From Candidatus Onthovivens sp. (GTDB lineage Bacteria; Bacillota_I; Bacilli_A; RFN20; CAG-826), in assembly GCA_035270825.1 (NCBI GenBank), contig DATESL010000028.1, forward strand, positions 1,064 through 65,063: a stretch of 64,000 bases of DNA, in the 5' to 3' direction. The translations under genes and the position numbers were made by a program. Positions 315 to 44,631 of this stretch are shown piece after piece (the stretch's first letter is position 1; each line of letters begins with the position of its first letter). The notes below the pieces were generated by a model. That model worked only from the letters and a program-made list of their open reading frames with translations, made no database searches and was not told where the DNA came from.

Positions 315-800
315 TTACTTGATTTTATTCTTTGGGAAGCGCTTATTATATTCTTCTTTCGAAATTAAATTATGAGCGTTCTCTTTTACTAAATGATAGA
401 GCTCTTTTTTAGTATCAAGGACGAAAAATCGGGTGTCACCTTTGGCAGTATAAATCATTAAAGTATTGTGTTTTAGTGTATAGGGATGATCAATATAGAG
501 GATATCCTTAAAATCATATATTAAAGTATTTTTGCCTTTATGTTGGATTAGGGTTGTTTTTGTAACTTCATAATAAGAATTATTTACTAAAAAGAATGAA
601 CCAAAAATAAAGGCAAAAATACTAACTCCTAAAATAATAACATCAATAATCACTTTAGAGATAACAAGCATTGAATTTTCATCTAAATATGAAAAACGCG
701 ATCCAAAAGCAAGAATCATAATTAGAACGAGAACAACGACAAAAGAGCCATAAATTGTAATCAATTTAGTTGGATTTGGTTTGATTTTTTTAACTTTCAT
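315..800 (-). CDS. Small membrane protein with two N-terminal TM helices and a C-terminal soluble domain, possibly bacterial PH-like (YdbS/DUF304-type)
   Basis: Hydrophobic segments LITIYGSFVVVLVLIMILAFG and VIIDVIILGVSIFAFIFGSFFLV, then an about 85-aa beta-rich domain (YYEVTKTTLIQHKGKNTLIYDFKDILYID...); no catalytic motif seen. Confidence 0.4.
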   Translation of the reverse strand: MKVKKIKPNPTKLITIYGSFVVVLVLIMILAFGSRFSYLDENSMLVISKVIIDVIILGVSIFAFIFGSFFLVNNSYYEVTKTTLIQHKGKNTLIYDFKDILYIDHPYTLKHNTLMIYTAKGDTRFFVLDTKKELYHLVKENAHNLISKEEYNKRFPKNKIK

Positions 801-927
801 AATATAAAAAACTATACATAAATTACATTGATTTGTAAATAGTAAAGTCGAGTTGAAAATCTATCATTTTTTCTTTATAAAAGTGTGCATTTTTGTTATA
901 ATTTTAAAAGTTAGGATTAATTGTTTA

Positions 928-2364
928 ATGAATCTATTTGATATTGTCTCTTATAACTATTTCTCATTATTTGCCGGAAAAAATAAGTCCATTTATATGG
1001 AAAGTTTGATGGTTCTTTTTAAGATGCTTGAAAACGATGAAACCTTTATTAAGAAAAATGATTTTTTAAAGGCTTTAAAAGAAAAAGCTGAAAATTTAAA
1101 TGCTTTTTCTTTTCAAGATGAAGAAGTCGATGGCAAAGATGATCTATTAATTCGTGAAACTATTGGGGCTAAAGCCAGTTTTATTATTAAAAGATTAGAA
1201 GAAACCGGATGGTTAGATATTGCAATTGATCCGGAAACATTTGAAGAAACAATCGTTTTACCGCCCTATTCAATTGCAATTTTAAAAGCCTTCTTTGATG
1301 TTATTAGTGATTCTGAGAGTCCATATTTAAGTTTGGTTCACTCTACTTATAGTGAATTAAAACTTGAGGATGAAGAACAAGATGATTTAATGTTTGCGAC
1401 TCTTTTAAGAAGCTATGAAAATACTAAAAAATTAAAAGTTGAACTGATTACTTTAATGCATTCAATTCGTATTTTTCAAAATCGTTTAGGAAAGAAATTT
1501 CAAACTAATGAAGTTCTTCATGATTTTTTTGATATTTATAAAAAACAAATTAGTGATCGTTATTACCATCCATTAAAAACATTTGATAGTGTTTCTAAAT
1601 TTAAAAGACCAATTATTCGTATTTTAGAAAAATGGATTAAGGATAAAGATATTCGTGCTAAACTAGTTATGCAAGCCTCATTTTCTTATCGTAATAATGA
1701 CCGTAATGAAATCGAAAATGACGTTATTACTAAAATTAACTATATTAGTGATACTTATGAATCACTTAATTCCATTATTTCAAGTATTGATAAAGAAAAC
1801 AGTTTATATACTAAAGCCAGTGCCAATAAGATTTTATATTTAAATAATACCGATAAAACAATCAAGGGGCATTTAGAAAATATTTTTAAATATTATGCTA
1901 AAAATACTCATGACCCTTATTCATTAGCAAAAGTTTTATCAAAGATGCAAGATTCCCTTTATTTTTATGAACAGGGATTTATTGATTCAGAGTCTTTAAC
2001 ATTACCGCTTTTACGACGTTTAAAAGAACATTCATTACCGCTTGAAATTGTTAATTTTGATGAAGCTAATGAGTTTATTATGGAACACTTTTTAGAAGAA
2101 ACTAAAAATATTTATACAGATGAGCGAATTTATCAGTTTATGGAAAATGCTTTTGGGGATTCAAATGAATTGAAATCAGCTGACATCCCACTTCTTAATA
2201 CTGATTCCTTTATTTGTTTAATTATGGCTACGATTAAAAGAAGTGATCCGCTTTGTTTCTATGTGATTGAAGAAAAAGAAAAGAAATACATTAAAAATCA
2301 TGAATATTTAATTCCTGATTTCTTGTTTAAAAGAAAAGAACACTTTAATGAAGGAGATGAATAA
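928..2364 (+). CDS. jetA: JetA/MksF-like (kleisin-type) subunit of a Wadjet/MksBEF-family SMC complex
   Basis: 478 aa counted from ATG 928. The track ORF starts at TTG 853, upstream of a TGtTATAAT extended -10 at 894-902, and would add an artefactual hydrophobic leader. First gene of a tightly packed 478/218/1121-aa triad whose order and sizes match JetA-JetB-JetC. No motif-level confirmation is possible by eye. Confidence 0.6.
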   Translation: MNLFDIVSYNYFSLFAGKNKSIYMESLMVLFKMLENDETFIKKNDFLKALKEKAENLNAFSFQDEEVDGKDDLLIRETIGAKASFIIKRLEETGWLDIAIDPETFEETIVLPPYSIAILKAFFDVISDSESPYLSLVHSTYSELKLEDEEQDDLMFATLLRSYENTKKLKVELITLMHSIRIFQNRLGKKFQTNEVLHDFFDIYKKQISDRYYHPLKTFDSVSKFKRPIIRILEKWIKDKDIRAKLVMQASFSYRNNDRNEIENDVITKINYISDTYESLNSIISSIDKENSLYTKASANKILYLNNTDKTIKGHLENIFKYYAKNTHDPYSLAKVLSKMQDSLYFYEQGFIDSESLTLPLLRRLKEHSLPLEIVNFDEANEFIMEHFLEETKNIYTDERIYQFMENAFGDSNELKSADIPLLNTDSFICLIMATIKRSDPLCFYVIEEKEKKYIKNHEYLIPDFLFKRKEHFNEGDE

Positions 2365-2366
2365 TT

Positions 2367-3023
2367 ATGTTTGAAGAAGAATTTAATAAACTGGTCAGAC
2401 AAGATCAACAAGCCTTTGCTCAAATTACAAATAAAATTTTAATTAAAGGATTTATAGTCCGTGATGTTTTTGATACTCGTGAGAAGATAATTCGTGTTAA
2501 TCCTGATTATCGTTTTATTGAAAGATTTTATGAATTAATTGAAGATTATTTAGAGTTTTCTGGTTGGCATATTGAAAAGGATTCGATGAATGGAGTTATT
2601 GCTTTAAGTAATAACTTTGAAGATAATCGTTTACGAATTGATCGAGAAACATCCCTTATTTTATTTGCTTTAAGATTAATATATGAAAATGAGAAGGAAA
2701 CATCCTCCCAATCTCAAATTGCAATCTTTTTAACTACAGCTTCACTTATTTCAATGATGTTAGAACACGGCATTACGATGCCAGGGAAACGAATTACGGG
2801 GCGCGGAGTTTCCAAGGCTTTAAGATTTTTGGCTTCTCATAATATTATTAGTAAAGTTAGTGGAAGTTATGATGAGGGGAATGTGGCCTTTTATATTTTA
2901 CCTTCAGTTATTTATGCAATCGATAATGATAAAATTGTTGCTATGAGTAAAATTATTGATGAACTCAAGGGCAGTGAAGAACAAACTGATTTAGGAGGTG
3001 CACTTGATGAAACTATTAACTAA
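2367..3023 (+). CDS. jetB: JetB/MksE-like (DUF4194-type) subunit
   Basis: 218 aa acidic protein. It starts 2 nt after the jetA stop with an AAGGAGA RBS inside the jetA 3' end, and its 3' end overlaps the jetC start. Size and position match JetB/MksE. Confidence 0.6.
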   Translation: MFEEEFNKLVRQDQQAFAQITNKILIKGFIVRDVFDTREKIIRVNPDYRFIERFYELIEDYLEFSGWHIEKDSMNGVIALSNNFEDNRLRIDRETSLILFALRLIYENEKETSSQSQIAIFLTTASLISMMLEHGITMPGKRITGRGVSKALRFLASHNIISKVSGSYDEGNVAFYILPSVIYAIDNDKIVAMSKIIDELKGSEEQTDLGGALDETIN

Positions 3024-6000
3024 AGTTAAGATTATTAACTGGCATTATTTTTGGAATGAGACTATCGAGATTGAACCAATCGTCTTTTTAACAGGATTAA
3101 ATGGAAGTGGAAAATCAACTCTGATTGATGCCTTAGAAGTTGTTTTACTTGGTGATACTACTGGACGTTCATTTAATAAAGCCGCAATGGAAAAATCTTC
3201 GCGTACATTACGTGGATATTTAAAAGGTGAATTAGGTGATTCCCTTGATGGAGGCTTTAAATATTTAAGAAACGGCCGATTTACCAGCTATATTGCTTTA
3301 GAGTTTTTTGATGATTTAGTAAATGCTCCTTATACATTAGGAATTTGTTTTGATTCTTATGATGATGGGAGTGAAGAACATCGTTTCTTTTTCCTTGACG
3401 ATGGGATTCCTGAAAATGAATTTATTGTTAATAATTTACCAATGGATTATAAAACTTTGGCAGATTATTTTTCAATCAATTATAAAGATAAATATAGGTT
3501 CTTTGATTCTAATCGCCAATATCAAGATTTCTTAAAGAAGAAAAGTGGCGGTTTAAAGGATAAATATTTTTCCCTTCTTAAAAAATCGACTTCATTTAGT
3601 CCAATTACTGATATTACAACCTTTATTACTGAATATGTCTGCGACCCACAATCTAATTTAGATTTAACACATTTACAAGAAAATATTATTCAATATAAAA
3701 GACTCGAAAACGAAGCTTTAGCTATTCAAAAACGCGTTGATCGTTTAGAAGAAATTGATAAAACTTATCAAGTGTTTTTAGAACACAAAAAGAATTTTAC
3801 AATTTCTAAATATATTATCGAACGATGTGAATTAGAAAACTCCTATCTCAAATTAGATTCTTTTAGAAGTTCGATTGAAGATAACAAAGGACGCATTTTA
3901 GAAATTGATGATCGTCTTGCTGATTTTTCAATAGCTTCGGGAGAATTAGAAAAGAAAAGAGTTCATTTAATTCAAGATAAAGCTAATAATAGTGCCGCTA
4001 AATTAACGCAAGAATTATCCGAGCAAAAAGTTGATACTGAACGTAAGATTTTTGCTATTAAAGAAGAAGTTAAAAGAGGTAAAGATTCTTTAAAAGCCTA
4101 TAATGAAAAATTTGCTAACGCTGCAGATTTACTTTTTAAAGATTTGAAAAATATCAACCGTGATATTTTAGATGATGATAAATTAGAAGAAATTACTTTG
4201 TTAATTGATGAATGTTCCAAGACTCTTTCCTTAACAAAAGAATTTAATAATAAATGCGAAAATCATCTTTTTGATTTAACTCGTGATGATTTTACGAGTT
4301 ACCGCAGCGGTCTAAGTGAATTTAAAAATAAAGTTTCTAGTTTATCAATTTCCCTTGCTCGTACAATCTTTAACATTGAAAAGAAAATCGGTTCTTTAAA
4401 AGATGAACAATTAAATATTAAAAAGGGAAATAAAGTTTATGATACCCGACTTGTTAATATTAAAACTCGTTTAGAAAGCGAACTTGCAAGTCGTTTTAAT
4501 AAACAAATTAGAGTAAATATATTTGCTGATTTGATCGATATTAAAGATTTAAGTTGGTCTAATGCAATTGAGGGATATTTATATAATCAAAAATTTAACT
4601 TGTTTGTTGAACCTAAGTATTATTTTGAAGCATATAAGATTTTAAAGAGATTGCTTGATGAATATCGTTATTTTGGTACAGCTTTAGTTGACCAAGAGCG
4701 TATTATTGAAAGAAATTATGAGATTGAAAATTTATCTCTTGCTGAAGAAATTAAAACAAGTGATGAAGGTGCCAGAGCTTATACTAACTTCCTGATTGGA
4801 AGATTATATAAATCTAATACACTAGAAGCAGCTCGTGATTCAAATAACGGAATTACCAAAGATTGTGATTTATATCGTAATTTTACTTTTTCTCGAATTA
4901 ATCCACGTTTATATCAAGAAAGCTTTATTGGTTCTAATTTAGATGAACGATTTGTTGAAGAGAAAGCTCGTCAAATGCAAAATAATATCGCTAATTTAAC
5001 AGGGTACCGTGAATTAACTAAAATTATAAATGCAGCTAACTCCCTTGAAATCATGTCAACTTATGAAATTGATAATTACTTAGATATTATTAAAAAATCT
5101 AGTGAGGTGAGCGGCTTAGAAGAGACCCTAAGTTTTATTAACTCTGAATTAAAAGAACATGATACAACTTTAATCGCTTCTCTTGATAAACGTTTAAGAG
5201 ATGTCGAAGATGATATCCGTGATATCAACTTTAAAAGAGAACAAATCATTGAAGAAAAAGGCGCTTTACAAAGAGAAATTTCTGCAATTAAAGAAGAAAA
5301 AATTGCTAATGAAGAAAGAATTATTAAAGAACGTGAAGAATCAATTAAAATTAACTATGATCCTTATTTAGTTGAAGAAAAAGCTCTTCCTTTATTTAAT
5401 GAAAAACGCACTGAAAAAGGAACATTAGAGATCTTCCAAGAATTTAATGCTAATTTATCACGCTTACAATATTTAGTTAATAACCTCTCTACTCAAATTG
5501 CAAAAGCAAAAAGAGATTATGTTAGTGAATATCATCTAAGTTTTGATTGTGATAAGGAAGATGGCGATGAATTTAGAAATGAATTAATCGATTTTAGAGA
5601 CGTTAAACTCCCTGAATATCAAGAAAAAATTAAAGACTCTTACCAAAAAGCAACTCAACAATTTAAAGATGACTTCATTTTTAAATTAAGAGGCGCAATT
5701 CAAGATGTTGAAGATCAAATTGAAAACTTAAATGAAGCTTTAAAACAATCCTCTTTTGGTCAAGATTTATACCGTTTCACAGTTAAGCCTTCAACAATTT
5801 ATAAAAGATACTATGAAATGGTCATGGATGACTTAATTTTAGAAGTGGGTGAAGAAGAAACTGCTTTTGTTGAAAAATATAAAGGAGTTATGGAAGATTT
5901 ATTCAAACAAATTGTTGAAACTGGTGAAGGGGATAAAAATTCCTTATTAATTGATAACATAAATAAGTTTACGGACTACAGAAGTTATTTAGATTTTGAT

Positions 6001-6372
6001 TTAATAGTGTATAATAAAGATAGTGGAGAAGAACAAAGACTTTCCAAGATGATTAAGAAGAAAAGTGGTGGTGAAACTCAAACCCCATTCTACATTGCTG
6101 TTTTAGCTTCATTTGCTCAATTATATCATGTTAATGATGATGGAGAATTAGCTAATACAACTCGTTTAATTGTTTTTGATGAAGCTTTTTCAAAGATGGA
6201 TCGTGGTCGTATCAAGGAGGCTGTTAAGCTTCTAAGAAAGTTTAATTTACAAGTTGTTATTTCCTGTCCAAGTGATAAAATCGCTGATATTACCGAACTT
6301 GTTGATCAAACTCTTGTCGTTTTACATAATAAAAATAGCAGCTGTGTTCGTCTTTATTCAAAGGAAAAATAA
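3007..6372 (+). CDS. jetC: JetC/MksB-like SMC-family ABC ATPase
   Basis: 1121 aa from ATG 3007, with AGGAGG at 2993-2998. Walker A GLNGSGKST (nt 3094-3120) lies in the N-terminal head LTKVKIINWHYF...FLTGLNGSGKSTLIDALEVVLLGD. About 700 aa of charged heptad-rich coiled coil follows. The C-terminal head carries signature KKKSGGETQTPFY (SGGE nt 6064-6075) and Walker B LIVFDEAFSKMD (D-E nt 6178-6183). Confidence 0.82.
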   Translation: MKLLTKVKIINWHYFWNETIEIEPIVFLTGLNGSGKSTLIDALEVVLLGDTTGRSFNKAAMEKSSRTLRGYLKGELGDSLDGGFKYLRNGRFTSYIALEFFDDLVNAPYTLGICFDSYDDGSEEHRFFFLDDGIPENEFIVNNLPMDYKTLADYFSINYKDKYRFFDSNRQYQDFLKKKSGGLKDKYFSLLKKSTSFSPITDITTFITEYVCDPQSNLDLTHLQENIIQYKRLENEALAIQKRVDRLEEIDKTYQVFLEHKKNFTISKYIIERCELENSYLKLDSFRSSIEDNKGRILEIDDRLADFSIASGELEKKRVHLIQDKANNSAAKLTQELSEQKVDTERKIFAIKEEVKRGKDSLKAYNEKFANAADLLFKDLKNINRDILDDDKLEEITLLIDECSKTLSLTKEFNNKCENHLFDLTRDDFTSYRSGLSEFKNKVSSLSISLARTIFNIEKKIGSLKDEQLNIKKGNKVYDTRLVNIKTRLESELASRFNKQIRVNIFADLIDIKDLSWSNAIEGYLYNQKFNLFVEPKYYFEAYKILKRLLDEYRYFGTALVDQERIIERNYEIENLSLAEEIKTSDEGARAYTNFLIGRLYKSNTLEAARDSNNGITKDCDLYRNFTFSRINPRLYQESFIGSNLDERFVEEKARQMQNNIANLTGYRELTKIINAANSLEIMSTYEIDNYLDIIKKSSEVSGLEETLSFINSELKEHDTTLIASLDKRLRDVEDDIRDINFKREQIIEEKGALQREISAIKEEKIANEERIIKEREESIKINYDPYLVEEKALPLFNEKRTEKGTLEIFQEFNANLSRLQYLVNNLSTQIAKAKRDYVSEYHLSFDCDKEDGDEFRNELIDFRDVKLPEYQEKIKDSYQKATQQFKDDFIFKLRGAIQDVEDQIENLNEALKQSSFGQDLYRFTVKPSTIYKRYYEMVMDDLILEVGEEETAFVEKYKGVMEDLFKQIVETGEGDKNSLLIDNINKFTDYRSYLDFDLIVYNKDSGEEQRLSKMIKKKSGGETQTPFYIAVLASFAQLYHVNDDGELANTTRLIVFDEAFSKMDRGRIKEAVKLLRKFNLQVVISCPSDKIADITELVDQTLVVLHNKNSSCVRLYSKEK

Positions 6373-6413: not shown

Positions 6414-7547
6414 ATGGGTGCAAAAATTGTTTCGATGATACTTGCAGGAGGAAAAGGGACAAGGCTTCAAGCCTTGACTAAAAAAATTGCTAAACCAGCA
6501 GTTTATTTTGGAGGCAGATATCGAATTATCGATTTTTGTTTGTCAAATACTGCAAACTCATCAATTAACGCTGTTGGTGTTTTAACACAGTATGAATCAG
6601 TTGTCTTAAATAATTATATAGGAAACGGTTCGAAATGGGGCTTTGATGGAGTCAATTCAATTTGTGTTCCGCTTGCTCCTCGTCAGACTGAAGAAGGTGC
6701 TAACTGGTATAAGGGAACGGCTGACGCTATTTATCAAAACTTAGATTTTTTAGATGATCAAAATCCAGATTACGTTTTAATTCTTAGTGGTGATCATATT
6801 TATAAAACAACTTTTGATGATATGCTTGATGTTCATATTAAAAATAAAGCTGCTTGTACAATTTCAGTTTTAGAAGTTGATATCAAAGAAGCTTCTCGAT
6901 TTGGAATTCTTGAGGTCGACGAAAAAGATCGCATCCAAAAATTCGTTGAAAAACCAAAAGAACCTAAATCAAACTTAGCTTCGATGGGTGTTTATATTTT
7001 CTCTTATAAAGTTTTAAGAGAACAATTAATTAAAGATCATAAAAATCCAGCAACAAACTTTGACTTTGGAAAAAATATTATTCCAAATATGTTAAAAGAA
7101 AATAAAAAATTAATGGCCTATCGCTTCCATGGTTATTGGAGAGACGTGGGAACTCTTGATAGTTTACATCAAGCTAACATGGAGTTATTACCATCAAAGA
7201 GAAATGATGAAACAATTGATTTTGATGCTTTCCCAACAATTTATAGTGAAGATACGCACTCTTTACCTCTCCGCATCCAAAAAGGTGCAATTGTTAAAGA
7301 TTGCTTAATCAATCAAGGAGCTGAAATTAGAGGAAGAGTTGAAGCCTCAGTTATTTCTAATGAAGTTTTAATTGAAGAGGGCGCTAAAGTTACTAATAGT
7401 GTTTTAATGCCAGGGGTTATAATTCGCAAGAATGCAAAAGTTCATAATGCTATTTTAGGTCCTAATACTCAAATTAAAGAAAATGAAGAAATCAATATCG
7501 ATAAAGACGATATTGTTTTAATCGACTATGAAAGGAGCTTACAATAA
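6414..7547 (+). CDS. glgC: Glucose-1-phosphate adenylyltransferase
   Basis: ILAGGKGTRLQALTKKIAKPAVYFGGRYRIIDFCLSN N-terminal motif; left-handed beta-helix C-terminus; strong RBS AAAGAGGAGG. Confidence 0.92.
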   Translation: MGAKIVSMILAGGKGTRLQALTKKIAKPAVYFGGRYRIIDFCLSNTANSSINAVGVLTQYESVVLNNYIGNGSKWGFDGVNSICVPLAPRQTEEGANWYKGTADAIYQNLDFLDDQNPDYVLILSGDHIYKTTFDDMLDVHIKNKAACTISVLEVDIKEASRFGILEVDEKDRIQKFVEKPKEPKSNLASMGVYIFSYKVLREQLIKDHKNPATNFDFGKNIIPNMLKENKKLMAYRFHGYWRDVGTLDSLHQANMELLPSKRNDETIDFDAFPTIYSEDTHSLPLRIQKGAIVKDCLINQGAEIRGRVEASVISNEVLIEEGAKVTNSVLMPGVIIRKNAKVHNAILGPNTQIKENEEINIDKDDIVLIDYERSLQ

Positions 7548-8668
7548 TGAATAAAGTAGTAGCCTTAATTAATTTGCACACCTCTCCTGAGCTGGGCTTA
7601 TTGACAGAAAAACGTCCACTTGCCTCAACTACTTTTCTTGGTAGATATGCCTTTATTGATATTGTTTTATCAAATTTAACTAATTCTGGAATTGATGATA
7701 TTGGAATTTTAGTTAAAGAGCGTTACCGTAGTATTATTAAACATATTGGCAACGAAAATACATATTTACAAAACTCTAAAACAGGATTTTTAAACTTCTT
7801 TATTAATGAAAAAGGAAGTCTTAATCCTACTTTTAATACTGATTTGAATAATATTAAAGAGAACGACTACTTTCTTTTTGATAAACACGTTGAATATGTT
7901 TTAATTGCTCCAACTGAAATTATTATGACTTATGATTATAAAAATTTAATTTCTGAGCATATTAAATCTGGTAAGAAGATTTCTGTTTTATATGGAACCG
8001 GAAAGAATAGTAATGGAACCTATAACGGACTAAGTTCAATTGTTGTTGATCCATTAAACAATATTCAAAAAATTGATCCAATTGATAAAGATAGTGATGA
8101 AGAATTAAATATTTCCTTAAAATCTTATATTATTAATAAAGATTTCTTAAAAGAAATTTTAGATAAATTCTCTAATATTTCACAAATCTTTAATATTTCC
8201 GATATGGTTTTATATATTACTAAATATTTTGAAAAAGTAAATGCCGTTAAATTTGAAGGCAAATTCCTTTATTTTAATACTTTTAAGAAATATTATGATT
8301 ATTCCTTTAAAGTACTTGATCAAGGGATTTCTTTAACTGATCCTCTTGTTCCAGACTGGGTTATTTTTACCACCACTCATAATACAAGACCAGTTTTATT
8401 TGGTCCTAAGAGTAAAGTTGAAAATTCAATTGTTTCCAATGGTTGTCAAATTGATGGAACCGTAAAACGTTCAATTCTTTCACGAAATGTTGTCGTTGAA
8501 GAGGGAGCAACTGTTGAAGATTCAATTATTTTTACAAATTGCTATGTTAAAGCTGGAGTCACTTTAAAAAATGTTGTCAGTGATAAACACGTTAAATTTG
8601 TTAACAAAAAGGAGATTGCTGGAACAAGTAGTGAGCCAATTTATATTCCTCAAGGAGCTAAATTATAA
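7547..8668 (+). CDS. glgD: Glucose-1-phosphate adenylyltransferase regulatory subunit GlgD
   Basis: GlgC paralogue lacking the GGxGxRL motif (LINLHTSPELGLLTEKRPLAS); its start overlaps the glgC stop (TAATG); position between glgC and glgA as in Firmicutes. Confidence 0.8.
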   Translation: MNKVVALINLHTSPELGLLTEKRPLASTTFLGRYAFIDIVLSNLTNSGIDDIGILVKERYRSIIKHIGNENTYLQNSKTGFLNFFINEKGSLNPTFNTDLNNIKENDYFLFDKHVEYVLIAPTEIIMTYDYKNLISEHIKSGKKISVLYGTGKNSNGTYNGLSSIVVDPLNNIQKIDPIDKDSDEELNISLKSYIINKDFLKEILDKFSNISQIFNISDMVLYITKYFEKVNAVKFEGKFLYFNTFKKYYDYSFKVLDQGISLTDPLVPDWVIFTTTHNTRPVLFGPKSKVENSIVSNGCQIDGTVKRSILSRNVVVEEGATVEDSIIFTNCYVKAGVTLKNVVSDKHVKFVNKKEIAGTSSEPIYIPQGAKL

Positions 8669-10107
8669 TGAATATTGTAATGATTACCGGGGAATGTTTA
8701 CCTTTTTCTAAAACTGGTGGTTTAGGAGATGTTTGCTATTCTCTTTCTAAGGAATTTGTTAAAAATAAACACAATGTTTCAGTTTTTGTTCCGTTTTATA
8801 AAAAATTTGACTTTAATAAATATAAAGAAATTGAAAAAGTCTTTACCTTCCCAGTCAATATGGGATGGAGAAAACCTTTTGCTAATATTTTTAAATTAAA
8901 ATATGATGGAATTGATTTTTATTTTATTCAAAATGATTATTATTTTTCTCGTAATGGGATGTATGGATATCCTGATGATGGTGAAAGATATGCATTTTTT
9001 AATGTTGCTTCAGTTACTCTTTTATCGCTTTTAGATTTCAAAGTTGATGTTTGTCACGTTCATGACTGGCAAGCTGGAATGATTCCATGTATTTTAAAAG
9101 AAAACTTTGCCTCTGATCCAAAACTTAATAAAATTAAAACAGTTTTAACTATTCATAATCCTTTATTTAAGGGTTATATTAATCGCGAGTCATTAAGCGA
9201 TTTATTAAATTTAAATACTTATTTATTTGATTCAGGAAAAGTTCGTTTTGAAAATCAAGTCTCTTTCCTTAAAGCCGGAATCGTTTATAGTGATAAAATT
9301 ACAACCGTTTCACCAACACATGCCTGGGAATTAACAACAAAAGAAGGCTCAAAAGGGTTATGGTATGATTTAACTTTGCGTAAGGAAGATTTTGTTGGGA
9401 TCTTAAATGGAATGGATCAAGATGAATTCAATCCTCAAACTGATAAGACAATATATAAAACATATAATGAGGAAGATTTTTCAGTTAATAAATTAAAAAA
9501 CAAAACTGCTTTTTGTAAAGAACACAATTTAGATCCTAAATTACCTCTTTATTCAGTTGTTTCCCGTCTAACTTCACAAAAAGGATTAGATTTAATTTAT
9601 GCTATGGCTGAATATGTTGTCACTCATAATGGAAACTTTGCAATTTTAGGTAGTGGCGAAAGAGATGGAGAAGAATCATTTAATCACTTAGTAAGAACTT
9701 ATCCAAAAAATACTTTTGTTTATATTGGTTATAATGATGAAATTGCTCATAAATTATATGCTTCAAGTGATTTCTTTATTATGCCAAGTGCTTTTGAGCC
9801 ATGTGGTTTAGGGCAAATGATTGCTCAAAGATATGGAACATTACCGATTGTCCGTCAAACTGGTGGATTAAAAGATAGTGTTATTTGTTATAAAGAATCC
9901 GAGAAAAACCAAGCAAAAGCTAATGGATTTGGTTTTGAAGATTATAATAAGATGGTTGCTATGAAAGAAGTGGCTATTACTCTTGATCTTTATGAAAATA
10001 AGCCAGATCTTATTAATCAGCTTGTCGCAAATGCTTTTAAAACAGATAATAGTTGGGTCAAAAGTGCCAAGCAATATCTTAAACTTTACAAGTTGATTGA
10101 AAAATAA
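8668..10107 (+). CDS. glgA: Glycogen synthase (ADP-glucose type, GT5)
   Basis: N-terminal ECLPFSKTGGLGDV motif and C-terminal SAFEPCGLGQMIAQRYGTLPIVRQTGGLKDSV motif; start overlaps the glgD stop. Confidence 0.92.
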   Translation: MNIVMITGECLPFSKTGGLGDVCYSLSKEFVKNKHNVSVFVPFYKKFDFNKYKEIEKVFTFPVNMGWRKPFANIFKLKYDGIDFYFIQNDYYFSRNGMYGYPDDGERYAFFNVASVTLLSLLDFKVDVCHVHDWQAGMIPCILKENFASDPKLNKIKTVLTIHNPLFKGYINRESLSDLLNLNTYLFDSGKVRFENQVSFLKAGIVYSDKITTVSPTHAWELTTKEGSKGLWYDLTLRKEDFVGILNGMDQDEFNPQTDKTIYKTYNEEDFSVNKLKNKTAFCKEHNLDPKLPLYSVVSRLTSQKGLDLIYAMAEYVVTHNGNFAILGSGERDGEESFNHLVRTYPKNTFVYIGYNDEIAHKLYASSDFFIMPSAFEPCGLGQMIAQRYGTLPIVRQTGGLKDSVICYKESEKNQAKANGFGFEDYNKMVAMKEVAITLDLYENKPDLINQLVANAFKTDNSWVKSAKQYLKLYKLIEK

Positions 10108-10127: not shown

Positions 10128-10320
10128 AGTCTTAAAACGAATAATTTATTGTTAATAATTTATAGAGAGTTACCACTGGTGAAAGGTAATAATTACGAAA
10201 ATAAAATCTCACGTTTGATAAAAAGACGCAATTAAGAGTATCTTAAAAATTTTTAAGATAAATTAAGGTGGTACCGCGCAATTATAAGCGTCCTTAAAAG
10301 TTTAAGGACGCTTTTTATTT
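10128..10320 (+). promoter_or_regulatory. T-box riboswitch leader controlling leuS (candidate specifier CUC, Leu)
   Basis: Stem I AGAGAG and ctggtgaaagg elements; conserved T-box sequence aattaaggtggtaccgcg (10261-10278); terminator hairpin immediately after; CUC followed by A at 10208-10211 as candidate specifier. Confidence 0.8.
10288..10318 (+). terminator. T-box attenuator terminator
   Basis: gcgtcctta (10288-10296) / loop / taaggacgc (10302-10311), followed by tttttatttt. Confidence 0.75.
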
Positions 10321-20441: not shown

Positions 20442-20547
20442 CACTTAATAATCAAAGATTTTAAGATCTCTTGATTTGATTAATTTTCTCTTAAGTTTTT
20501 AGTCCAAATAATATATAATTATAATGTTTAACAAAGGAGCTTTTAAT

Positions 20548-21033
20548 ATGGTTATAAAAAAAGAAGCAGTTGATAAAATTGTGGAGATTTGTGCCCGTTA
20601 TAAAAACGAACCATCACCACTAATGCTCGTCCTTTCGGACACCCAAAAAGAATATGGATATATTCCTCTTGAAGTTCAAGAAGTAATTGCAAAAGAATTA
20701 GATATCCCAGCAAGCGATATTTATGGCGTTGTTACTTTTTATAGTTTTTTCTCATTAACACCAAAAGGAAAATTTGTTGTTGGAGTTTGTTTAGGAACTG
20801 CTTGTTATGTTAAAGGTGGACAAAACCTTTTAGATAAATTCTCAGAATTATTAAAAATTAAAGCCGGCCAAACAACCGAGGACGGTCTTTTTACTTTAGA
20901 TGCTTTACGTTGTATTGGAGCTTGTGGTATTGCCCCTGCTTTAACAATCAATGGTAAAGTTTATCCAAAAGTTTCGACAAATGATGTCGGTAAAATTATA
21001 CAAGAGTATAAGAATTTAGCTAAGGAGAACTAA
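20548..21033 (+). CDS. hydC: NuoE-like [2Fe-2S] subunit of a bifurcating-type [FeFe]-hydrogenase (HydC)
   Basis: 161 aa from ATG 20548 (AAAGGAG RBS); thioredoxin-like 2Fe-2S cysteines GVCLGTACYVKG and LRCIGACGIAP. Confidence 0.85.
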   Translation: MVIKKEAVDKIVEICARYKNEPSPLMLVLSDTQKEYGYIPLEVQEVIAKELDIPASDIYGVVTFYSFFSLTPKGKFVVGVCLGTACYVKGGQNLLDKFSELLKIKAGQTTEDGLFTLDALRCIGACGIAPALTINGKVYPKVSTNDVGKIIQEYKNLAKEN

Positions 21034-21034
21034 A

Positions 21035-22912
21035 ATGGCAATCACTAAAATTAAAAATGAAGCTGAACTAGCTGCTAAAATTCAAAGTTGTGGCAAATGT
21101 TTAGAAGAAAAATTCTCTGGTAAAGATGGTAAAAGACATCTTTGTGTTTGTGGAGGGACTGGTTGTTTATCCTCTGAATCACAAGAAATTCTTGATCGTT
21201 TACAACAATTAATTGTTGAAAACAATCTAGAAGATGTAGCAACAGTTAATGTTGTTGGTTGTTTTGGTTTTTGCTCACAAGGACCATTTGTTAAAATTTA
21301 TCCAGAAGATAGATTATATCGCACAGTTAAAGTTTCTGATTGTGAACGAATTATTAAAGAAGACATTATTGATGGAAAATTAATTGAAGATCTTTTATAT
21401 GAAGATCCAAATACTCATGAAAAAATTGAAAGACAAGACGACATCGCTTTCTATAAGAAACAAATTCGTATTGCTTTACATGGTTGTGGAACAATTAACC
21501 CTGAAGAACTTGATGAATCTTTTGGAAGTGAAGGCTTAGTTGCTTTATTAAAAGTTTTAAAAACAGACCGCCAAGAAGTTATTAAAGAAATTCTTGATAG
21601 TGGTTTAAGAGGCCGTGGAGGTGGTGGATTCCCTACTGGCCGTAAATGGCAATTTGCCTATGATCAAAAAAATGACACCAAATATGTTGTTTGTAATGGT
21701 GATGAGGGCGATCCAGGTGCATTCATGGACCGTTCAATTTTAGAAGGAAACCCAGTTTCAGTTATTGAAGGAATGATGATTGCAGGTTATGCAATTGGTG
21801 CTGAAAATGGTTATTTCTATGTTCGCGCTGAATATCCTACTGCTTTAGCTCGTTTAAGAAAAGCAATTAAAGAATTAGAAGAAATTGGAATCCTTGGTGA
21901 TAATATCCTTGGAACTGGTTTTAATTTTAGATGTCATATTCGTTTAGGAGCTGGAGCCTTTGTTTGTGGTGAAGAAACTGCTCTTTTAAACTCAATTGAA
22001 GGACAAAGAGGAATGCCTCGTCCACGTCCACCATTCCCTGCTGTTAAAGGATTATGGGGACGACCAACTATTATTAATAACGTTGAAACACTGGCCTGTA
22101 TTCCATACATTATTCGTGTTGGGGCAAGTGAATTTGCAAAAATTGGTACCGAAAAGAGTAAAGGTACTAAAGTTTTTGCTTTAGGCGGAAAAGTTAAAAA
22201 CGTTGGCTTAGTTGAAGTTCCAATGGGAACTACATTAAGAGAATTAATTTATGATATTGGTGGTGGAATTCCTGATGAAAAAGAATTCTTAGCCATTCAA
22301 ACTGGTGGTCCAAGTGGAGGTTGTTTAACAGCAGCCGAACTTGATACCCCAATTGATTATGATAACTTAATTGCAAAAGGTTCAATGATGGGAAGTGGCG
22401 GAGCCATTGTTATGGATGTCGATAACTGTATGGTCGATGTTGCAAAATTCTATCTTGAATTTATTTGTGATGAAAGCTGTGGAAAATGTTCCCCATGCCG
22501 TATTGGTACGAAAAGATTATTAGAAATTTTAACTCGTATTACAGAAGGAAGAGGGACTCGCGAAGATATCGATAAACTTGAAACTTTATCTGAGGCCATT
22601 CAAGTTGGTAGTTTATGTGGTCTTGGTCAAACTGCTTCAAATCCTGTTTTATCAACGATTACTAAATTTAGAGATGTTTATTATCGTCATATTGATGATA
22701 AAGCTTGTGATGCCGGAGTTTGTAAAAAACTTATTAGTTTTGTGGTCGACCCAATAAAATGTAAAAAATGTTCATTATGTGCTCGTAACTGTCCTGTTAA
22801 TTGTATTAGTGGGGTTATTGGTAAAGAACCATATTTTATTGATCAAGCTAAGTGTATTAAATGTGGCAGTTGTTTTACAGCATGTAAATTCGACGCAATA
22901 ATTAAGAAATAA
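21035..22912 (+). CDS. hydB: NuoF-like NAD(H)/FMN-binding Fe-S subunit (HydB)
   Basis: 625 aa. N-terminal 2Fe-2S (CVCGGTGC...CFGFCSQGP), FMN/NADH site GLRGRGGGGFPTGRKW, 4Fe-4S ESCGKCSPCRIG, and C-terminal 2x[4Fe-4S] CKKCSLCARNCP / CIKCGSCFTACK. Confidence 0.9.
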   Translation: MAITKIKNEAELAAKIQSCGKCLEEKFSGKDGKRHLCVCGGTGCLSSESQEILDRLQQLIVENNLEDVATVNVVGCFGFCSQGPFVKIYPEDRLYRTVKVSDCERIIKEDIIDGKLIEDLLYEDPNTHEKIERQDDIAFYKKQIRIALHGCGTINPEELDESFGSEGLVALLKVLKTDRQEVIKEILDSGLRGRGGGGFPTGRKWQFAYDQKNDTKYVVCNGDEGDPGAFMDRSILEGNPVSVIEGMMIAGYAIGAENGYFYVRAEYPTALARLRKAIKELEEIGILGDNILGTGFNFRCHIRLGAGAFVCGEETALLNSIEGQRGMPRPRPPFPAVKGLWGRPTIINNVETLACIPYIIRVGASEFAKIGTEKSKGTKVFALGGKVKNVGLVEVPMGTTLRELIYDIGGGIPDEKEFLAIQTGGPSGGCLTAAELDTPIDYDNLIAKGSMMGSGGAIVMDVDNCMVDVAKFYLEFICDESCGKCSPCRIGTKRLLEILTRITEGRGTREDIDKLETLSEAIQVGSLCGLGQTASNPVLSTITKFRDVYYRHIDDKACDAGVCKKLISFVVDPIKCKKCSLCARNCPVNCISGVIGKEPYFIDQAKCIKCGSCFTACKFDAIIKK

Positions 22913-22922
22913 GGAGAAAACC

Positions 22923-24698
22923 ATGGCTAAAATTACTATTTATATTGAATCTAAACCTTATCAAGTAGAGGAAGGTTTAACAGTCTTAGAGGCTTGTAGA
23001 GAATGTGGCTTTAATATTCCATCCTTATGTACCTGGAAAAATGGCGAATGTTCAGTGGCAAGTTGCCGTGTTTGTTTAGTTAAAATTGAGGGTGAAAGAG
23101 GATTATCACCAAGCTGTGCTTATCCAATAAGAGACGGAATGAAGATTTCAATTTCTGATCCACAAGCTGTTGAGGCTCGTCGAATCTCAGTTGAATTACT
23201 GCTTTCAAATCATAACTGGAACTGTCAAGCATGCCGTAAAAACGGACAATGTGAATTATTAGAAGTTGCTCAAAGAGTTGGAGCTCGCCCTGATATTTTC
23301 CCTGGTTCAAAAACTAAAACAACAATTGATACAATTGCTCCAGGATTAGTTCGTGATACTTCAAAATGTATTTTATGTGGACGCTGTGTTGAAGCTTGTA
23401 AAATTACTCAAGGCTTAGGAATTCTTGGCTTTGAAAATAGAGGCTTTGAAACAATCGTTGCTCCAATTGGTAATAAATCCTTTGCTGATGTTCCTTGTAT
23501 TCAATGCGGACAATGTACGCTTGTTTGTCCAACTGGCGCTTTAATGGAACATGATGAAATTTCCAAACTTGATGAAGCCATGAAGGCTGGCAAAAAAATT
23601 ATTGTTCAAACTGCACCTGCAGTTCGAGCTGCAATTGGTGAAGAATTTGGTGAAAAAATTGGAACTCGTTCTACTGGCAAAATGGTTGCTGCTCTTCACC
23701 GTTTAGGTTTCTATCGCGTCTTTGATACAAACTTTGGTGCTGACTTAACAATTACCGAAGAAGCAAATGAATTTGTCACTCGCTTTACAAGTAAGGTCAA
23801 AGGACCAATGATTACATCTTGCTCACCTGGTTGGGTTAATTATATGGAATATTACTACAGTGATTTAATTCCTCATTTATCCACATGTAAATCTCCTCAT
23901 CAAATGATGGGTGCGATTATTAAATCTTATTATGCTCAAAAATCAAACATTGATCCAAACGATATTTGTGTTGTTTCAATTATGCCATGTGTGGCTAAAA
24001 AGTTTGAAAAAGAAAGAGATCATCAAAGTGTTGATGGTTTAAAAGATGTTGATGTCGTTTTAACAACAAGAGAACTTGCTCGCTTAATTAAAAGAAGTGG
24101 AATTATCTGGTCAAAACTTCCTGATGAAGAATTTGATGATGATTTAATTGGTGATTATAGTGGTGCTGGAGCAATCTTTGGAGTTACAGGTGGAGTGATG
24201 GAGGCTGCTATTAGAACCGCTCATTACTTAATTACTAAAAAAGAATTAGAACCAATCGTTTTTGAACCAGCTCGTGGTTTAAAAGCAATTAAGGAAGCTA
24301 CTCTTGATATTGAAGGAACTAAAGTTAAAATCGCAATTGTTAGCGGAATGAGCAATGCCAAAGTCTTACTTGATCAAATTAGAGATGGCCAATCCCCTTA
24401 TGATTTTATTGAAATTATGGGTTGTCCAGGAGGTTGTATTAATGGTGGAGGTCAACCATATGTCTTCCCAGTCTTCCTTCCTAATGAAGATGCTGATATT
24501 AATGAAAAATATCGTGAATTAAGAGCTAAAACTTTATATGAAGAAGATGAAACACGTAAAGTTAGAAGATCTCATTTAAATCCTGATATTATTAAATTAT
24601 ATAATGATTTCTTAGGAGAATATGGTTCACATGTTTCTCATAAATACTTACATACTTCCTTTAATGCTAAACGCGAAAAATATCCAACAAAAAAATAG
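22923..24698 (+). CDS. hydA: [FeFe]-hydrogenase catalytic subunit, M3 architecture (HydA)
   Basis: N-terminal 2Fe-2S, His-ligated 4Fe-4S (HNWNCQACRKNGQC), and two ferredoxin 4Fe-4S motifs (CILCGRCVEAC, CIQCGQCTLVCP). H-cluster motifs are TSCSPGW (variant of TSCCPxW), MPCVAKKFE and EIMGCPGGCINGGGQP. Confidence 0.9.
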   Translation: MAKITIYIESKPYQVEEGLTVLEACRECGFNIPSLCTWKNGECSVASCRVCLVKIEGERGLSPSCAYPIRDGMKISISDPQAVEARRISVELLLSNHNWNCQACRKNGQCELLEVAQRVGARPDIFPGSKTKTTIDTIAPGLVRDTSKCILCGRCVEACKITQGLGILGFENRGFETIVAPIGNKSFADVPCIQCGQCTLVCPTGALMEHDEISKLDEAMKAGKKIIVQTAPAVRAAIGEEFGEKIGTRSTGKMVAALHRLGFYRVFDTNFGADLTITEEANEFVTRFTSKVKGPMITSCSPGWVNYMEYYYSDLIPHLSTCKSPHQMMGAIIKSYYAQKSNIDPNDICVVSIMPCVAKKFEKERDHQSVDGLKDVDVVLTTRELARLIKRSGIIWSKLPDEEFDDDLIGDYSGAGAIFGVTGGVMEAAIRTAHYLITKKELEPIVFEPARGLKAIKEATLDIEGTKVKIAIVSGMSNAKVLLDQIRDGQSPYDFIEIMGCPGGCINGGGQPYVFPVFLPNEDADINEKYRELRAKTLYEEDETRKVRRSHLNPDIIKLYNDFLGEYGSHVSHKYLHTSFNAKREKYPTKK

Positions 24699-26363: not shown

Positions 26364-27200
26364 ATGAAATATAAAATAGTTTGTGATAGTAGTTCTAATC
26401 TCACTTCTGATTATTTAAAATCAGAAAAAGATATCGCTTTTGGGATTGCCCCATTAAGCATTTATGTTAAAGGAAAAGAGTTTGTCGATGATGATCATAT
26501 TGATGTTAACAAGCTTTTAGATGAAGTTAATGCCACTAGTGAAAAATCAACAAGTTCCTGTCCTTCCCCTCAAGATTTTATTAATAATTTTGAAGGTGCT
26601 GAAGAAGTTTTTTGTTTTACAATTACTTCTAAATTAAGCGGAGCATATAATAGTGCCTGTTTAGCAAAGGAATTAATGAAAGATCGTAATGAAAAGGTTT
26701 TTGTTTTAGATTCCAAATTAGTTGCTGGAACTATTGAGCAATTAGTTATTAAATGTGTGGAATTAATTAAAGAAGGCCTTGCTTATGAAGAAATTTGTCA
26801 AAAATTAGAAGAATATCGCGATTCGTTAAAGTTATTTTTTGCTTTAGATAAATTCGATAATCTTGTAAAAAATGGCCGTATGTCTAAAATTACTGCTTTA
26901 ATTGCGCAAATGATTGCTATTAAACCACTTTGTTATGGTGATAATGGTGAAATTAAAATTAAAGAGAAAATTCGTACCTTTAAAGGGGTTTTAGTTCGTT
27001 TAGCTTATAATATTGAAAAGTACGGGATTGATTTTTCAAGTCAAATCTGTATTATTTCTCATACTCGTAATGCTGAAGGAGCACAAAAATTAAAGGAGTT
27101 AATTGAAGCCACAACTAAATTTAAAGAAATTATTATTCGTGAAAACCGCGGATTATGTGCTTTTTATTCTCTAGATGGCGGAATCCTTTGTGCTTTTTAG
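26364..27200 (+). CDS. DegV family fatty-acid-binding protein (FakB-like)
   Basis: 278 aa; MKYKIVCDSSSNL start and overall DegV pattern (SSCPSPQDF, FTITSKLSGAYNSA). Confidence 0.85.
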   Translation: MKYKIVCDSSSNLTSDYLKSEKDIAFGIAPLSIYVKGKEFVDDDHIDVNKLLDEVNATSEKSTSSCPSPQDFINNFEGAEEVFCFTITSKLSGAYNSACLAKELMKDRNEKVFVLDSKLVAGTIEQLVIKCVELIKEGLAYEEICQKLEEYRDSLKLFFALDKFDNLVKNGRMSKITALIAQMIAIKPLCYGDNGEIKIKEKIRTFKGVLVRLAYNIEKYGIDFSSQICIISHTRNAEGAQKLKELIEATTKFKEIIIRENRGLCAFYSLDGGILCAF

Positions 27201-39560: not shown

Positions 39561-40538
39561 ATGAACATTGTTATTGATATGATGGGTGGGGATAAGGGCT
39601 TAGAAGCAACAATCCCTAGTCTAAAAAAATTCTTGAAAAGTCATGATGATGTGATGATTTATGCTGTTGGAGATGAACCATCTTTAAGTGATTTTAAAAA
39701 TCATAAAAGAGTTAAAATTATTCCTTCAACTACTGTTTTAAAAATGGATGTTAATCCTCTTGATGCTATTCATGATAAAAATAGCTCTTTAATGGTTGGA
39801 ATTAAAACTCTTCTTGATAATGAGTGTGACGGGATTGTTAGTGCTGGCTCAACTGGAGCTTTATTAACAGCCGGGATCATGAAAATTAAAAGATTAAGCG
39901 GGATTTCTCGTCCTGGCTTATTAACTCCTTTTCCTACTGCCGTTAAAGGTAAAAAGATGGTGGTTATTGACTTAGGAGCTAACACTTCTAATACTCCTGA
40001 AGAATTAAATCAATTTGCGGTGATGGCATCATTATTTGCAAGTTTTGCTTATAAAACTAAACAACCAAAAGTTTATTTATTAAATAATGGAACGGAAGAA
40101 GAAAAAGGCAACGATATTACAAAAGCTGCTTTTAAACTTTTAAAAGAAAATAAGCAAATTAATTTTGTCGGAAATATGGAAGCTCGTGATGTATTAAATG
40201 GCGAAGCGGATTGTTTAATTTGTGATGGATTTAGTGGAAATATTCTTTTAAAAGCAATTGAGGGAACGGCTTCATTTGTTTCAAGTTTATTAAAGAAAGC
40301 TTTTAAAAGAAGTTTAGGATCTCGAATTGGTTATTTATTAACTAAAAAGGGTGTTAAAGAAATGAAAAGTGTTATGAATTATAAAAATACTGGTGGAGCA
40401 ATGCTTTGTGGGATTAACGAAGTTTGTATTAAAGCTCATGGTTCTAGTGATGATGAGGCTTTTTTAGGTGCTTTAGAGTTGACTTACAATTTATGTGATG
40501 CTCATATTGTTGAAAAATTCAAAGAGGCTTTGAAATAA
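39561..40538 (+). CDS. plsX: Phosphate acyltransferase PlsX
   Basis: 325 aa; IVIDMMGGDKG start and SAGSTGALL motif. Confidence 0.9.
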   Translation: MNIVIDMMGGDKGLEATIPSLKKFLKSHDDVMIYAVGDEPSLSDFKNHKRVKIIPSTTVLKMDVNPLDAIHDKNSSLMVGIKTLLDNECDGIVSAGSTGALLTAGIMKIKRLSGISRPGLLTPFPTAVKGKKMVVIDLGANTSNTPEELNQFAVMASLFASFAYKTKQPKVYLLNNGTEEEKGNDITKAAFKLLKENKQINFVGNMEARDVLNGEADCLICDGFSGNILLKAIEGTASFVSSLLKKAFKRSLGSRIGYLLTKKGVKEMKSVMNYKNTGGAMLCGINEVCIKAHGSSDDEAFLGALELTYNLCDAHIVEKFKEALK

Positions 40539-40545
40539 AATAAAA

Positions 40546-41229
40546 ATGGAAAATTTAAGAAGTTTTTTCAAAGAATTAAAAATTAAACCTCATAATAAAG
40601 AGCTCTATGAGATCGCTTTTACTCATTCCTCTTATAATAGTGATGCCAAAACTTCTCACCGTGATTATGAACGTTTAGAATTTATTGGAGATAGTGTGCT
40701 CGGTTTTGTTGTTGCCTCATTACTTTTTAGTGCTCATCCAGAGTTTAGAGAAGGTGATTTAACAAAAGCTAAGGCTTCTCTTGTTCAAACTAAGTCTCTA
40801 GCAATGTATGCTCGCAAGGAAGATTTTGCTGAATATATTAAAGTTGGTCATAGTATTTCAAAAGAAGAAGTTAAAAATAATAATTCGATTTTAGAAGATG
40901 TTTTTGAAGCTGTCATTGGAGCTATTTATTTAGATCAAGGAATTAAAGTATGTTCTAAATATATTTCTAAAGTATTTTTAGAAGATATTATTGATTTTAA
41001 AATGGAAGAAGTTAAAGATTATAAATCACTTCTTCAAGAAGCAATGCAGGCTGAATATCGTGAATCAGTTCACTATTCTTTAATTGAAGAAAAAGGACCT
41101 CCTCATGATAAAACATTTTTTGTTGAAGTCTCCTTTAATAATATTGTGTTAGGGCGAGGAACTGGTAAAACGAAGAAAGCTGCTGAGCAAAAAGCTGCTG
41201 AAGAAGCTTTGTCGAAAAAGGCTGGTTAA
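40546..41229 (+). CDS. rnc: Ribonuclease III
   Basis: Signature ERLEFIGDSVLG and C-terminal dsRBD (GPPHDKTFFVEV...GKTKKAAEQKAAEEAL). Confidence 0.93.
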   Translation: MENLRSFFKELKIKPHNKELYEIAFTHSSYNSDAKTSHRDYERLEFIGDSVLGFVVASLLFSAHPEFREGDLTKAKASLVQTKSLAMYARKEDFAEYIKVGHSISKEEVKNNNSILEDVFEAVIGAIYLDQGIKVCSKYISKVFLEDIIDFKMEEVKDYKSLLQEAMQAEYRESVHYSLIEEKGPPHDKTFFVEVSFNNIVLGRGTGKTKKAAEQKAAEEALSKKAG

Positions 41230-43857: not shown

Positions 43858-44631
43858 TTACTTAATAAACTTCTTACCTTTATTTAAAGCTTCTAACTCC
43901 CAATCGGGAGTTTTTTCATTCTTTAATTCCTCAATTAACTTCTCTTCAGTCTTAGAATAAATATGCCCGTTTAGTAGGTCTTTTCTTAATTTAAGCGTTA
44001 AATCAAGCGATTTCTTTAAACGGTATTTTTCAATTGCTTGATGGTTTCCTGAGTATAAAATATCAGGTATTTTTTTATTATCGTATTCATATGGTTCAGT
44101 ATATTGAGGGTACTCAAGAAGGTGTGAGGAAAAACTTTCCTCTGCTAAAGATGACTCAGTAATAACCCCTTTAATAAGCCTTGAAACACTATCAATAATT
44201 GCCAAAGCAGCTGGTTCACCACCTGTTAAAATATAATCACCAATTGAAATAACTTCATCAAAATAATCATATATTCTTTCATCAAATCCTTCATAATGAC
44301 CACACAAAACTAAAATTTCTTCATAATCTTTTGCATAGTGGTTAGCAATTTTTTGATCGTATTTTATTCCACGAGGAGAAAGAATAATTTTGTGTGTTTT
44401 CTCACTAGAATTAGCTTTTAAAGCATCAATAATTGGTTGAATTTTTAAAATTAATCCTGCTCCACCACCAACAGGAGGAGTATCACAGCGATTATATTTA
44501 TCTTTCGTATAATCACGAATATTTACAAGTTTAACTTCAATTATTTCCTTACCAATAGCGCGTTTTAAAATTGAAGATGAAAGAAAACTTTCAAAGACTT
44601 CTGGGAATAATGTTAGGATAATAAATCTCAC
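43858..44631 (-). CDS. trmD: tRNA (guanine37-N1)-methyltransferase
   Basis: MRFIILTLFPEVFESFL start and GGGAGLILK...ILTGGEPAALAIIDSVSRLI motifs; its stop codon directly abuts the ffh stop codon. Confidence 0.92.
   Translation of the reverse strand: MRFIILTLFPEVFESFLSSSILKRAIGKEIIEVKLVNIRDYTKDKYNRCDTPPVGGGAGLILKIQPIIDALKANSSEKTHKIILSPRGIKYDQKIANHYAKDYEEILVLCGHYEGFDERIYDYFDEVISIGDYILTGGEPAALAIIDSVSRLIKGVITESSLAEESFSSHLLEYPQYTEPYEYDNKKIPDILYSGNHQAIEKYRLKKSLDLTLKLRKDLLNGHIYSKTEEKLIEELKNEKTPDWELEALNKGKKFIK

Follow-up and report, generated by a model that had tools for sequence, protein, structure and literature searches.

A 64,000-nucleotide (64-kb) stretch of a Candidatus Onthovivens sp. contig (DATESL010000028.1, positions 1,064 to 65,063; hereafter the window) carries a three-gene operon, jetABC, that is predicted to encode the motor subunits of a type I Wadjet system and has no gene for the Wadjet nuclease JetD at the locus. 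We consider this operon to encode a type I Wadjet motor that has lost its nuclease and been domesticated, acts as a chromosomal condensin and has probably replaced Smc-ScpAB, and we place the probability of this reading at roughly 55%. The original prediction, made from the DNA sequence alone, had left open whether such a motor acts only through loop extrusion or compaction, serves as a lineage-specific condensin or uses an unrecognised effector. The first two of these options are favoured by the fixation of the operon in the core genome at about 85 loci, by purifying selection, by invariant motifs and by an empty smc slot. Core fixation and housekeeping-level constraint, together with the missing smc, make chromosome compaction and segregation, the task of P. 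aeruginosa MksBEF and of MukBEF, the most likely role. From these observations we infer, rather than show, loop extrusion on the chromosome, a condensin function and the genome-wide loss of Smc-ScpAB.

Assignment of the three proteins to type I Wadjet

The three genes lie on the + strand in close succession: jetA (928..2364; kleisin subunit, 478 amino acids), jetB (2367..3023; KITE subunit, DUF4194/MukE-like, 218 amino acids) after a gap of 2 nucleotides (nt), and jetC (3007..6372; SMC/MukB-like ABC ATPase, 1121 amino acids), which overlaps jetB by 17 nt. A longer version of JetA is possible from a TTG at 853, and the GTG at 2998 is an alternative start for jetC. This layout is the one first described, and products of 478, 218 and 1121 amino acids are reproduced by independent gene calls on metagenome contigs.

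The order and sizes of the genes had been taken to indicate Wadjet JetA-JetB-JetC, and this is borne out by type I matches in both Pfam and PADLOC profile searches. JetA matches Pfam PF18982 (3.5e-92, coverage 2-434/434) and PADLOC JetA1 (9.7e-119), JetB matches Pfam PF13835 (DUF4194; 8.3e-15) and PADLOC JetB1 (2.9e-66), and JetC matches the PADLOC JetC1 model PDLC00519 with E=0 and 1076 bits. A lack of significant similarity of the first two proteins to their families had been named beforehand as evidence against the assignment; what the search returned were overwhelming type I Wadjet matches. In Pfam, JetC also matches SbcC_Walker_B/AAA_29, scores 28.8 bits against SMC_N, which is under the cutoff of 40, and has a marginal match to the MukB N-terminal family PF04310 (2.3e-5, 24.7 bits vs. 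a cutoff of 23). None of the three proteins has a Pfam match to SMC_hinge, ScpA or ScpB, nor do JetA and JetB match the MukF or MukE families in Pfam; these two partners match JetA and DUF4194 only.

PDLC00519 is also the top JetC model for JetD-bearing systems on Bacillota plasmids, namely those of Cohnella (1183 bits) and Rossellomorea (899 bits), whose JetCs share 20-29% pairwise identity with the window JetC. Since this model is also the best one for bona fide JetD-bearing systems, the window trio is, as judged from sequence, made up of true type I Wadjet motor subunits JetA, JetB and JetC. The catalytic motifs reported for the third gene are all present in JetC: Walker A (GLNGSGKST, residues 30-38), the signature (KKKSGGETQ, residues 1017-1025) and Walker B/D-loop (residues 1054-1065, including LIVFDEAF).

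Absence of jetD at the locus

In canonical Wadjet, motors that stall on a small circle leave bent DNA, which is cleaved by a JetD dimer (10.1101/2023.11.03.565488). JetD was not among the best 25 of the 31 PADLOC families matched by the 46 other open reading frames (ORFs) of at least 150 amino acids in the window, and PADLOC likewise identified no other defence genes near jetABC among the window ORFs of this size. A hidden Markov model (HMM) was then built from three JetDs encoded in canonical jetABCD operons on Bacillota plasmids. Against the six-frame translation of the window it gave nothing better than E=1, and the same was true for about 85 related loci (80 read with flanks of at most 10 kb to the left and right, plus distant relatives). 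These loci are local neighbourhoods rather than whole genomes, and they span JetC identities to the window down to 38% and GC contents from about 27% to 55%. Positive controls scored 1e-183 to 1e-209, and the model also reaches proteobacterial JetDs, at 7e-24 and, weakly, at 8e-6 (Variovorax). In the JetD-bearing operons examined, jetD is the adjacent fourth gene in 5/5, the Variovorax one being recognized with the same weak score of 8e-6. The six-frame search gave no match in the window and about 135 loci, and a jetD that is hidden nearby or degraded is rejected on these grounds.

The earlier statement that the window has no Toprim-like ORF needs a small change, because topoisomerase I (topA, 50266-52350) is a Toprim-domain ORF; it is not JetD. 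Because there is no JetD, nothing would be cut, and the motor alone would do no more than fold DNA.

Two known JetD-docking features of the motor itself were compared. In the JetD-less clade, the larynx Phe of E. coli JetC (F919) is replaced in the alignment by an acidic, Ala or Ser patch, in a part of the protein where the alignment is unreliable. The added JetD-bearing sequences are not consistently hydrophobic at this column, so that the comparison was discarded as evidence and the loss of a docking residue (a ‘natural F919E’) was dropped. Loss of the JetB IFDR motif is unsupported, since JetB has a conserved N-terminus that looks like the one in JetBs of JetD-bearing Bacillota systems.

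An empty smc position at the rnc-ftsY junction

In Gram-positive bacteria, smc usually lies between rnc and ftsY (rnc-smc-ftsY). In the window, rnc (40546-41229, + strand) is followed after a 1-nt spacer by ftsY (41231-42211, + strand), and the slot is empty. The window holds no smc: there is no room for it at the junction, and no further ORF of more than 800 amino acids occurs in the 64 kb. The surrounding DNA is colinear with the yloA...rpmB...yloV-plsX-rnc-smc-ftsY-ylxM-ffh...dprA-topA-trmFO-xerC-rpsB segment of B. subtilis.

The direct rnc-ftsY junction also occurs in three species whose FtsY is 59-64% identical to that of the window (loci L100, L131 and L132), and in all four species the two genes abut within 0-2 nt. 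A scan of metagenomes with lineage-specific FtsY peptides returned 27 loci, one of which (L100) was informative. L131 reads asp23-fakA-recG...plsX-rnc-ftsY-ylxM-ffh...rplS-ylqF-rnhB-dprA-topA, which is the B. subtilis-like order except for smc and the fab genes. To judge from gene order, the junction looks like a clean deletion of smc and not like a rearrangement. No canonical SMC was found in any of the DNA examined, i.e. the window and the related loci, and no SMC seed was obtained from a related lineage either.

Two other features of this region were observed. plsX (39561-40538) precedes rnc by 7 nt, without the fabD-fabG-acpP genes that lie between the two in B. subtilis. The window does have fakA (37894) and a gene for a DegV protein (26364-27200), and this combination suggests a dependence on exogenous fatty acids. 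In addition, trmD-rimM (43858-45140, - strand) is inverted relative to ffh when compared with the B. subtilis order, and the inversion recurs, with khpA-rpsP, in L131 and L132.

Distribution and inheritance of jetABC

A scan of species-representative genomes with the lineage-specific peptide patterns WSNAIEG and QKFNLFV yielded 80 loci with a JetC 38-65% identical to that of the window. The genomes all belong to uncultured Bacilli and carry the labels ‘Mollicutes’, Onthovivens, Coprobacillus CAG:826 or Erysipelotrichales; Onthovivens itself is placed in Bacilli incertae sedis by the NCBI taxonomy. In nearly all of them the order is rlmN-prpC-prkC-rpe-thiN, rpmB (- strand), jetA-jetB-jetC, glgC-glgD-glgA and, often, leuS, with a membrane protein ORF, when present, between rpmB and jetABC. 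This order recurs over the whole range of JetC identities. The loci were recovered by homology search, and the fixed position is thus a statement about recovered loci and not about all genomes of the lineage.

When the deepest branch (L093) was used as query, a larger superfamily emerged with 962 matches at E<1e-30. Four of its members were inspected, on contigs of up to 865 kb with GC contents of 39-56%, one of them in a Candidatus Scatoplasma cluster; all four have jetABC trios in housekeeping contexts, without jetD.

The identity of JetC to the window protein is correlated with the identities of GlgC, GlgD and GlgA to theirs (r=0.79-0.84), and with the identity of JetA (r=0.94). No relatives were found on viral contigs, and plasmid and phage matches reach at most ~21-30% identity, which together rule against an origin from a mobile element. 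jetABC is a vertically inherited core-genome operon of a large group of small-genome gut Bacilli.

Selection on the motor

The ratio of nonsynonymous to synonymous substitution rates (dN/dS) was estimated by the Nei-Gojobori method from 9-26 independent close pairs per gene, with a dS of about 0.7. JetA has a dN/dS of 0.060, JetB of 0.068 and JetC of 0.085, compared to 0.057 for GlgC, 0.061 for LeuS, 0.088 for GlgA and 0.099 for GlgD. Walker A (G..G.GKST), the signature (SGGE.Q), Walker B and the D-loop (FDEAFSKMD) are unchanged in 77/77 full-length JetCs, the hinge segment containing WSNAIEG and QKFNLFV is invariant in a 9-sequence alignment, and each gene of the trio keeps an intact ORF in about 75-80 species. 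jetABC is under strong purifying selection of the kind acting on housekeeping genes.

Proposed mechanism and relation to known systems

By homology to the solved type I JetABC, the complex would consist of two JetC2-JetA-JetB2 motor units with a kleisin bridge: JetA, the kleisin, would bridge the dimers of the SMC ATPase JetC, to which the KITE protein JetB would bind, also as dimers. Type I JetABC motor units are known to extrude DNA loops using ATP (PMC10586767). In the proposed mechanism, JetABC would be loaded onto the chromosome of the host, which it would fold through ATP-driven loop extrusion. The operon has become fixed in the core genome of uncultured small-genome gut Bacilli (Onthovivens / CAG-826 / Scatoplasma-type), where JetABC would probably have taken over compaction and segregation from Smc-ScpAB, with smc gone from the rnc-smc-ftsY slot.

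With the type I Wadjet JetABCD systems of E. coli GF4-3, P. aeruginosa PA14 and Bacillota plasmids such as that of Cohnella herbarum (NZ_CP051681.1), the window locus shares gene order, sizes and tight coupling, the Pfam and PADLOC families including the JetC1 sub-model PDLC00519, and intact ATPase motifs. It differs from them in that the JetD Toprim nuclease (aCAP + Toprim) is absent locally, in its JetC sequence (20-29% identity to the plasmid systems) and in being a fixed core-genome operon evolving at a housekeeping rate, instead of a mobile or patchy one. P. aeruginosa MksBEF is likewise a three-gene kleisin-KITE-SMC system without a nuclease, a likeness of gene make-up. As expected of an MksBEF-type system, jetABC is chromosomal, vertically inherited and under purifying selection, and has no associated nuclease at the locus. 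However, P. aeruginosa retains Smc-ScpAB, with MksBEF as a backup. In the window the canonical smc slot is empty, the best matches of the proteins are still to type I Wadjet, and the host belongs to the Bacillota and has a reduced genome.

A parallel in terms of outcome is MukBEF, which apparently replaced Smc-ScpAB lineage-wide and may itself have a past as a defence system (PMC10586767). The gamma-proteobacterial complex has the same SMC-kleisin-KITE composition and the window JetC has the weak MukB N-terminal match, but JetA and JetB lack MukF/MukE matches, the phylum is different and the sequences are far closer to Wadjet. The architecture is also common to Smc-ScpAB, and the proposed role is alike, i.e. 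folding and segregation through loop extrusion; the families are different, with no SMC_hinge, ScpA or ScpB, and jetABC is not located at rnc-ftsY.

MukBEF and MksBEF have been hypothesised to be Wadjet defence systems that were domesticated after loss of the nuclease (PMC10586767; 10.1101/2025.03.10.642339). The jetABC locus fits this proposal and constitutes a natural test of it. MukBEF and MksBEF are too diverged for the transition to be reconstructed, while the sequence of the window motor still identifies it without ambiguity as type I Wadjet. The concept of nuclease-free Mks/Jet trios is established (PMC10586767), and one such trio is also found in Agathobacter (see below), so the category itself has been described before. 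The novelty lies in the combination of a motor that by its sequence is still Wadjet-I, its fixed presence in a deep lineage of Bacilli with reduced genomes, and an empty smc slot. We found no literature on condensins in RFN20, RF39 or Onthovivens.

A bolder claim, which we hold tentatively and at somewhat less than even odds, is that gut Bacilli with reduced genomes, forming a lineage of order rank, no longer have any Smc-ScpAB and rely for their chromosome on a type I Wadjet motor that has been domesticated. If true, such a loss would be an independent and still Wadjet-like repeat of the MukBEF transition, caught early. Should Smc-ScpAB be absent genome-wide, these bacteria would provide a second case of replacement of the near-universal bacterial condensin, as well as a natural series for the changes that turn a plasmid sensor into a condensin. 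In that case they would also call for caution in defence annotation, since such trios match Wadjet models and are probably not defence systems.

Alternative interpretations

Several points weigh against a replacement condensin. All genomes used here are metagenome-assembled genomes, and the DNA examined covers about 64 kb of a ~1-Mb genome plus local neighbourhoods, so that smc may have moved elsewhere. The rnc-ftsY junction and jetABC are on one contig in the window only; that L100, L131 and L132 carry jetABC is deduced from similar divergence. An rRNA operon lies between the two loci and probably causes assemblies to break there. At its extreme N-terminus JetB has a conserved MFEEEF-like stretch that recalls the one in JetBs of JetD-bearing Bacillota systems and, loosely, the IFDR JetD-docking motif, which makes a docking partner for JetABC possible. 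In deep branches, such a different partner could be the DUF3137 membrane protein encoded after jetC (see below).

The alternative that survives best, an unlikely one in our view, is that nuclease-free JetABC works on the chromosome as an accessory condensin, with Smc-ScpAB encoded elsewhere in the genome and JetABC as its backup in the manner of P. aeruginosa MksBEF. That both can be kept together is seen in P. aeruginosa, and the absence of smc is shown here for its canonical slot only. Moreover, lineages with about 50% FtsY identity have neither rnc nor smc 5′ of ftsY, so the rnc-smc-ftsY linkage can break. In the four species with the direct junction, however, rnc and ftsY have both been kept and abut, as after a clean deletion. 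Genomes of about 1 Mb also seldom retain redundant systems, yet jetABC is constrained to the level of housekeeping genes.

Marginally less probable again is a defence role in which JetABC senses small circular DNA and acts on it by compaction, by silencing or through an unrecognised effector. The motor is type I Wadjet by its matches, the JetB N-terminal motif is conserved, and candidates for an effector exist: the DUF3137 membrane protein, whose gene starts 15-130 nt after jetC in many deep-branching members, a host nuclease, or the divergent 161-amino-acid membrane protein, of which a BLAST-detectable homologue is present 5′ of jetA in 33/80 related loci. Defence genes, though, are typically patchy, mobile and fast-evolving, whereas jetABC has a fixed position in all recovered loci, diverges in step with its neighbours and has a dN/dS equal to that of leuS and glgC. 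The DUF3137 gene is missing from the whole clade of the window and has no PADLOC match, and there are no further defence genes nearby in the window.

An ordinary split Wadjet, in which a canonical jetD elsewhere in the genome would allow plasmids still to be cleaved, is improbable. The N-terminus of JetB is like that of JetD-bearing systems, the column equivalent to JetC F919 gave no clear separation, and the jetD searches covered the window and local neighbourhoods. Against this, jetD was the adjacent gene in every JetD-bearing operon examined (in Variovorax by its weak match), and about 85 deeply diverged loci have no jetD within 10 kb; a trans-encoded jetD would thus need to have persisted across the entire lineage. 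Finally, a decaying Wadjet remnant with no current function, for which the loss of the effector gene would speak, is excluded for practical purposes by ORFs that remain intact in about 75-80 species, dN/dS values of 0.06-0.085, catalytic motifs unchanged in 77/77 JetCs and the invariant hinge segment of the nine aligned sequences.

Promoter and neighbouring genes

A putative sigma-70-like promoter, TTTATA-17-TATAAT with an extended TG (TGtTATAAT), is found by consensus match at 874..902 (+ strand), 26 nt 5′ of the jetA ATG, and is followed by a TAGGA ribosome-binding site at 912-916. The -10 box pointed out in the original prediction is therefore present, but promoter-like sites are no more frequent in the region than in shuffled sequence, so that 874-902 is a plausible promoter.

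Both immediate neighbours are positioned as first described. Downstream, glgC-glgD-glgA (6414..10107, + strand) are conserved neighbours, with the glgC start 41 nt past the jetC stop. No terminator-like site was found in this gap, and the first strong terminator is at 10286-10313, after glgA, so jetABC and glgCDA may be co-transcribed as six genes. Their adjacency or proximity is retained in about 70 of the 80 loci and in three of the four distant relatives, where glgCDA is within 3.4 kb of jetABC, and the link persists in genomes with 27%-55% GC and JetC identities down to 38% (L015-L094, L127, L129, L130). Upstream, the 161-amino-acid membrane protein (315..800, - strand) is divergent from jetA, with which it shares an intergenic region. 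It has no family match in Pfam and PADLOC profile searches, and any functional link to jetABC is putative.

DUF3137 gene and other nuclease-free trios

In some of the loci, jetC is followed by a co-directional gene for a DUF3137 protein of about 290-350 amino acids with two transmembrane segments (L093:13541-14587; L129:13594-14619; L130:13708-14568). The same gene follows jetC in L052, L053, L054, L059, L075, L076 and L090. This ORF of about 300 amino acids was considered as a cryptic JetD and rejected, as it is a two-transmembrane DUF3137 protein without a PADLOC match.

A jetABC trio without jetD also occurs in Agathobacter rectalis (L133; NZ_CP143948.1, 194000-204263), on a 252-kb non-mobilizable replicon where carbonic anhydrase and MFS transporter genes come after it. 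The top PADLOC sub-model of its JetC is PDLC00505, unlike PDLC00519 for the window, which suggests that the nuclease was lost independently. In Salipiger sp. (L134; NZ_CP014597.1), some 800 nt without annotation come after jetABC. The JetD HMM finds no match there, and this locus is either another nuclease-free trio or one with a degraded or divergent jetD.

Further observations in the window

Some Onthovivens have been reported to read CGG as Trp (PMC13092985). In window ORFs of at least 150 amino acids, CGG accounts for 4/17,911 codons, of which two belong to an antisense ORF that is spurious, and it does not occur in jetABC, glgC or leuS. The one CGG checked, coaX codon 51, is at a variable K/E/N position. 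There is thus no sign of reassignment, and with no CGG codons in jetABC a change to Trp is irrelevant to the operon. Lastly, the region 20524-24698 encodes a NuoE-like 2Fe-2S protein, a NuoF-like flavoprotein and the large subunit of an [FeFe]-hydrogenase, likely an electron-bifurcating hydrogenase, which is consistent with an anaerobic gut lifestyle.

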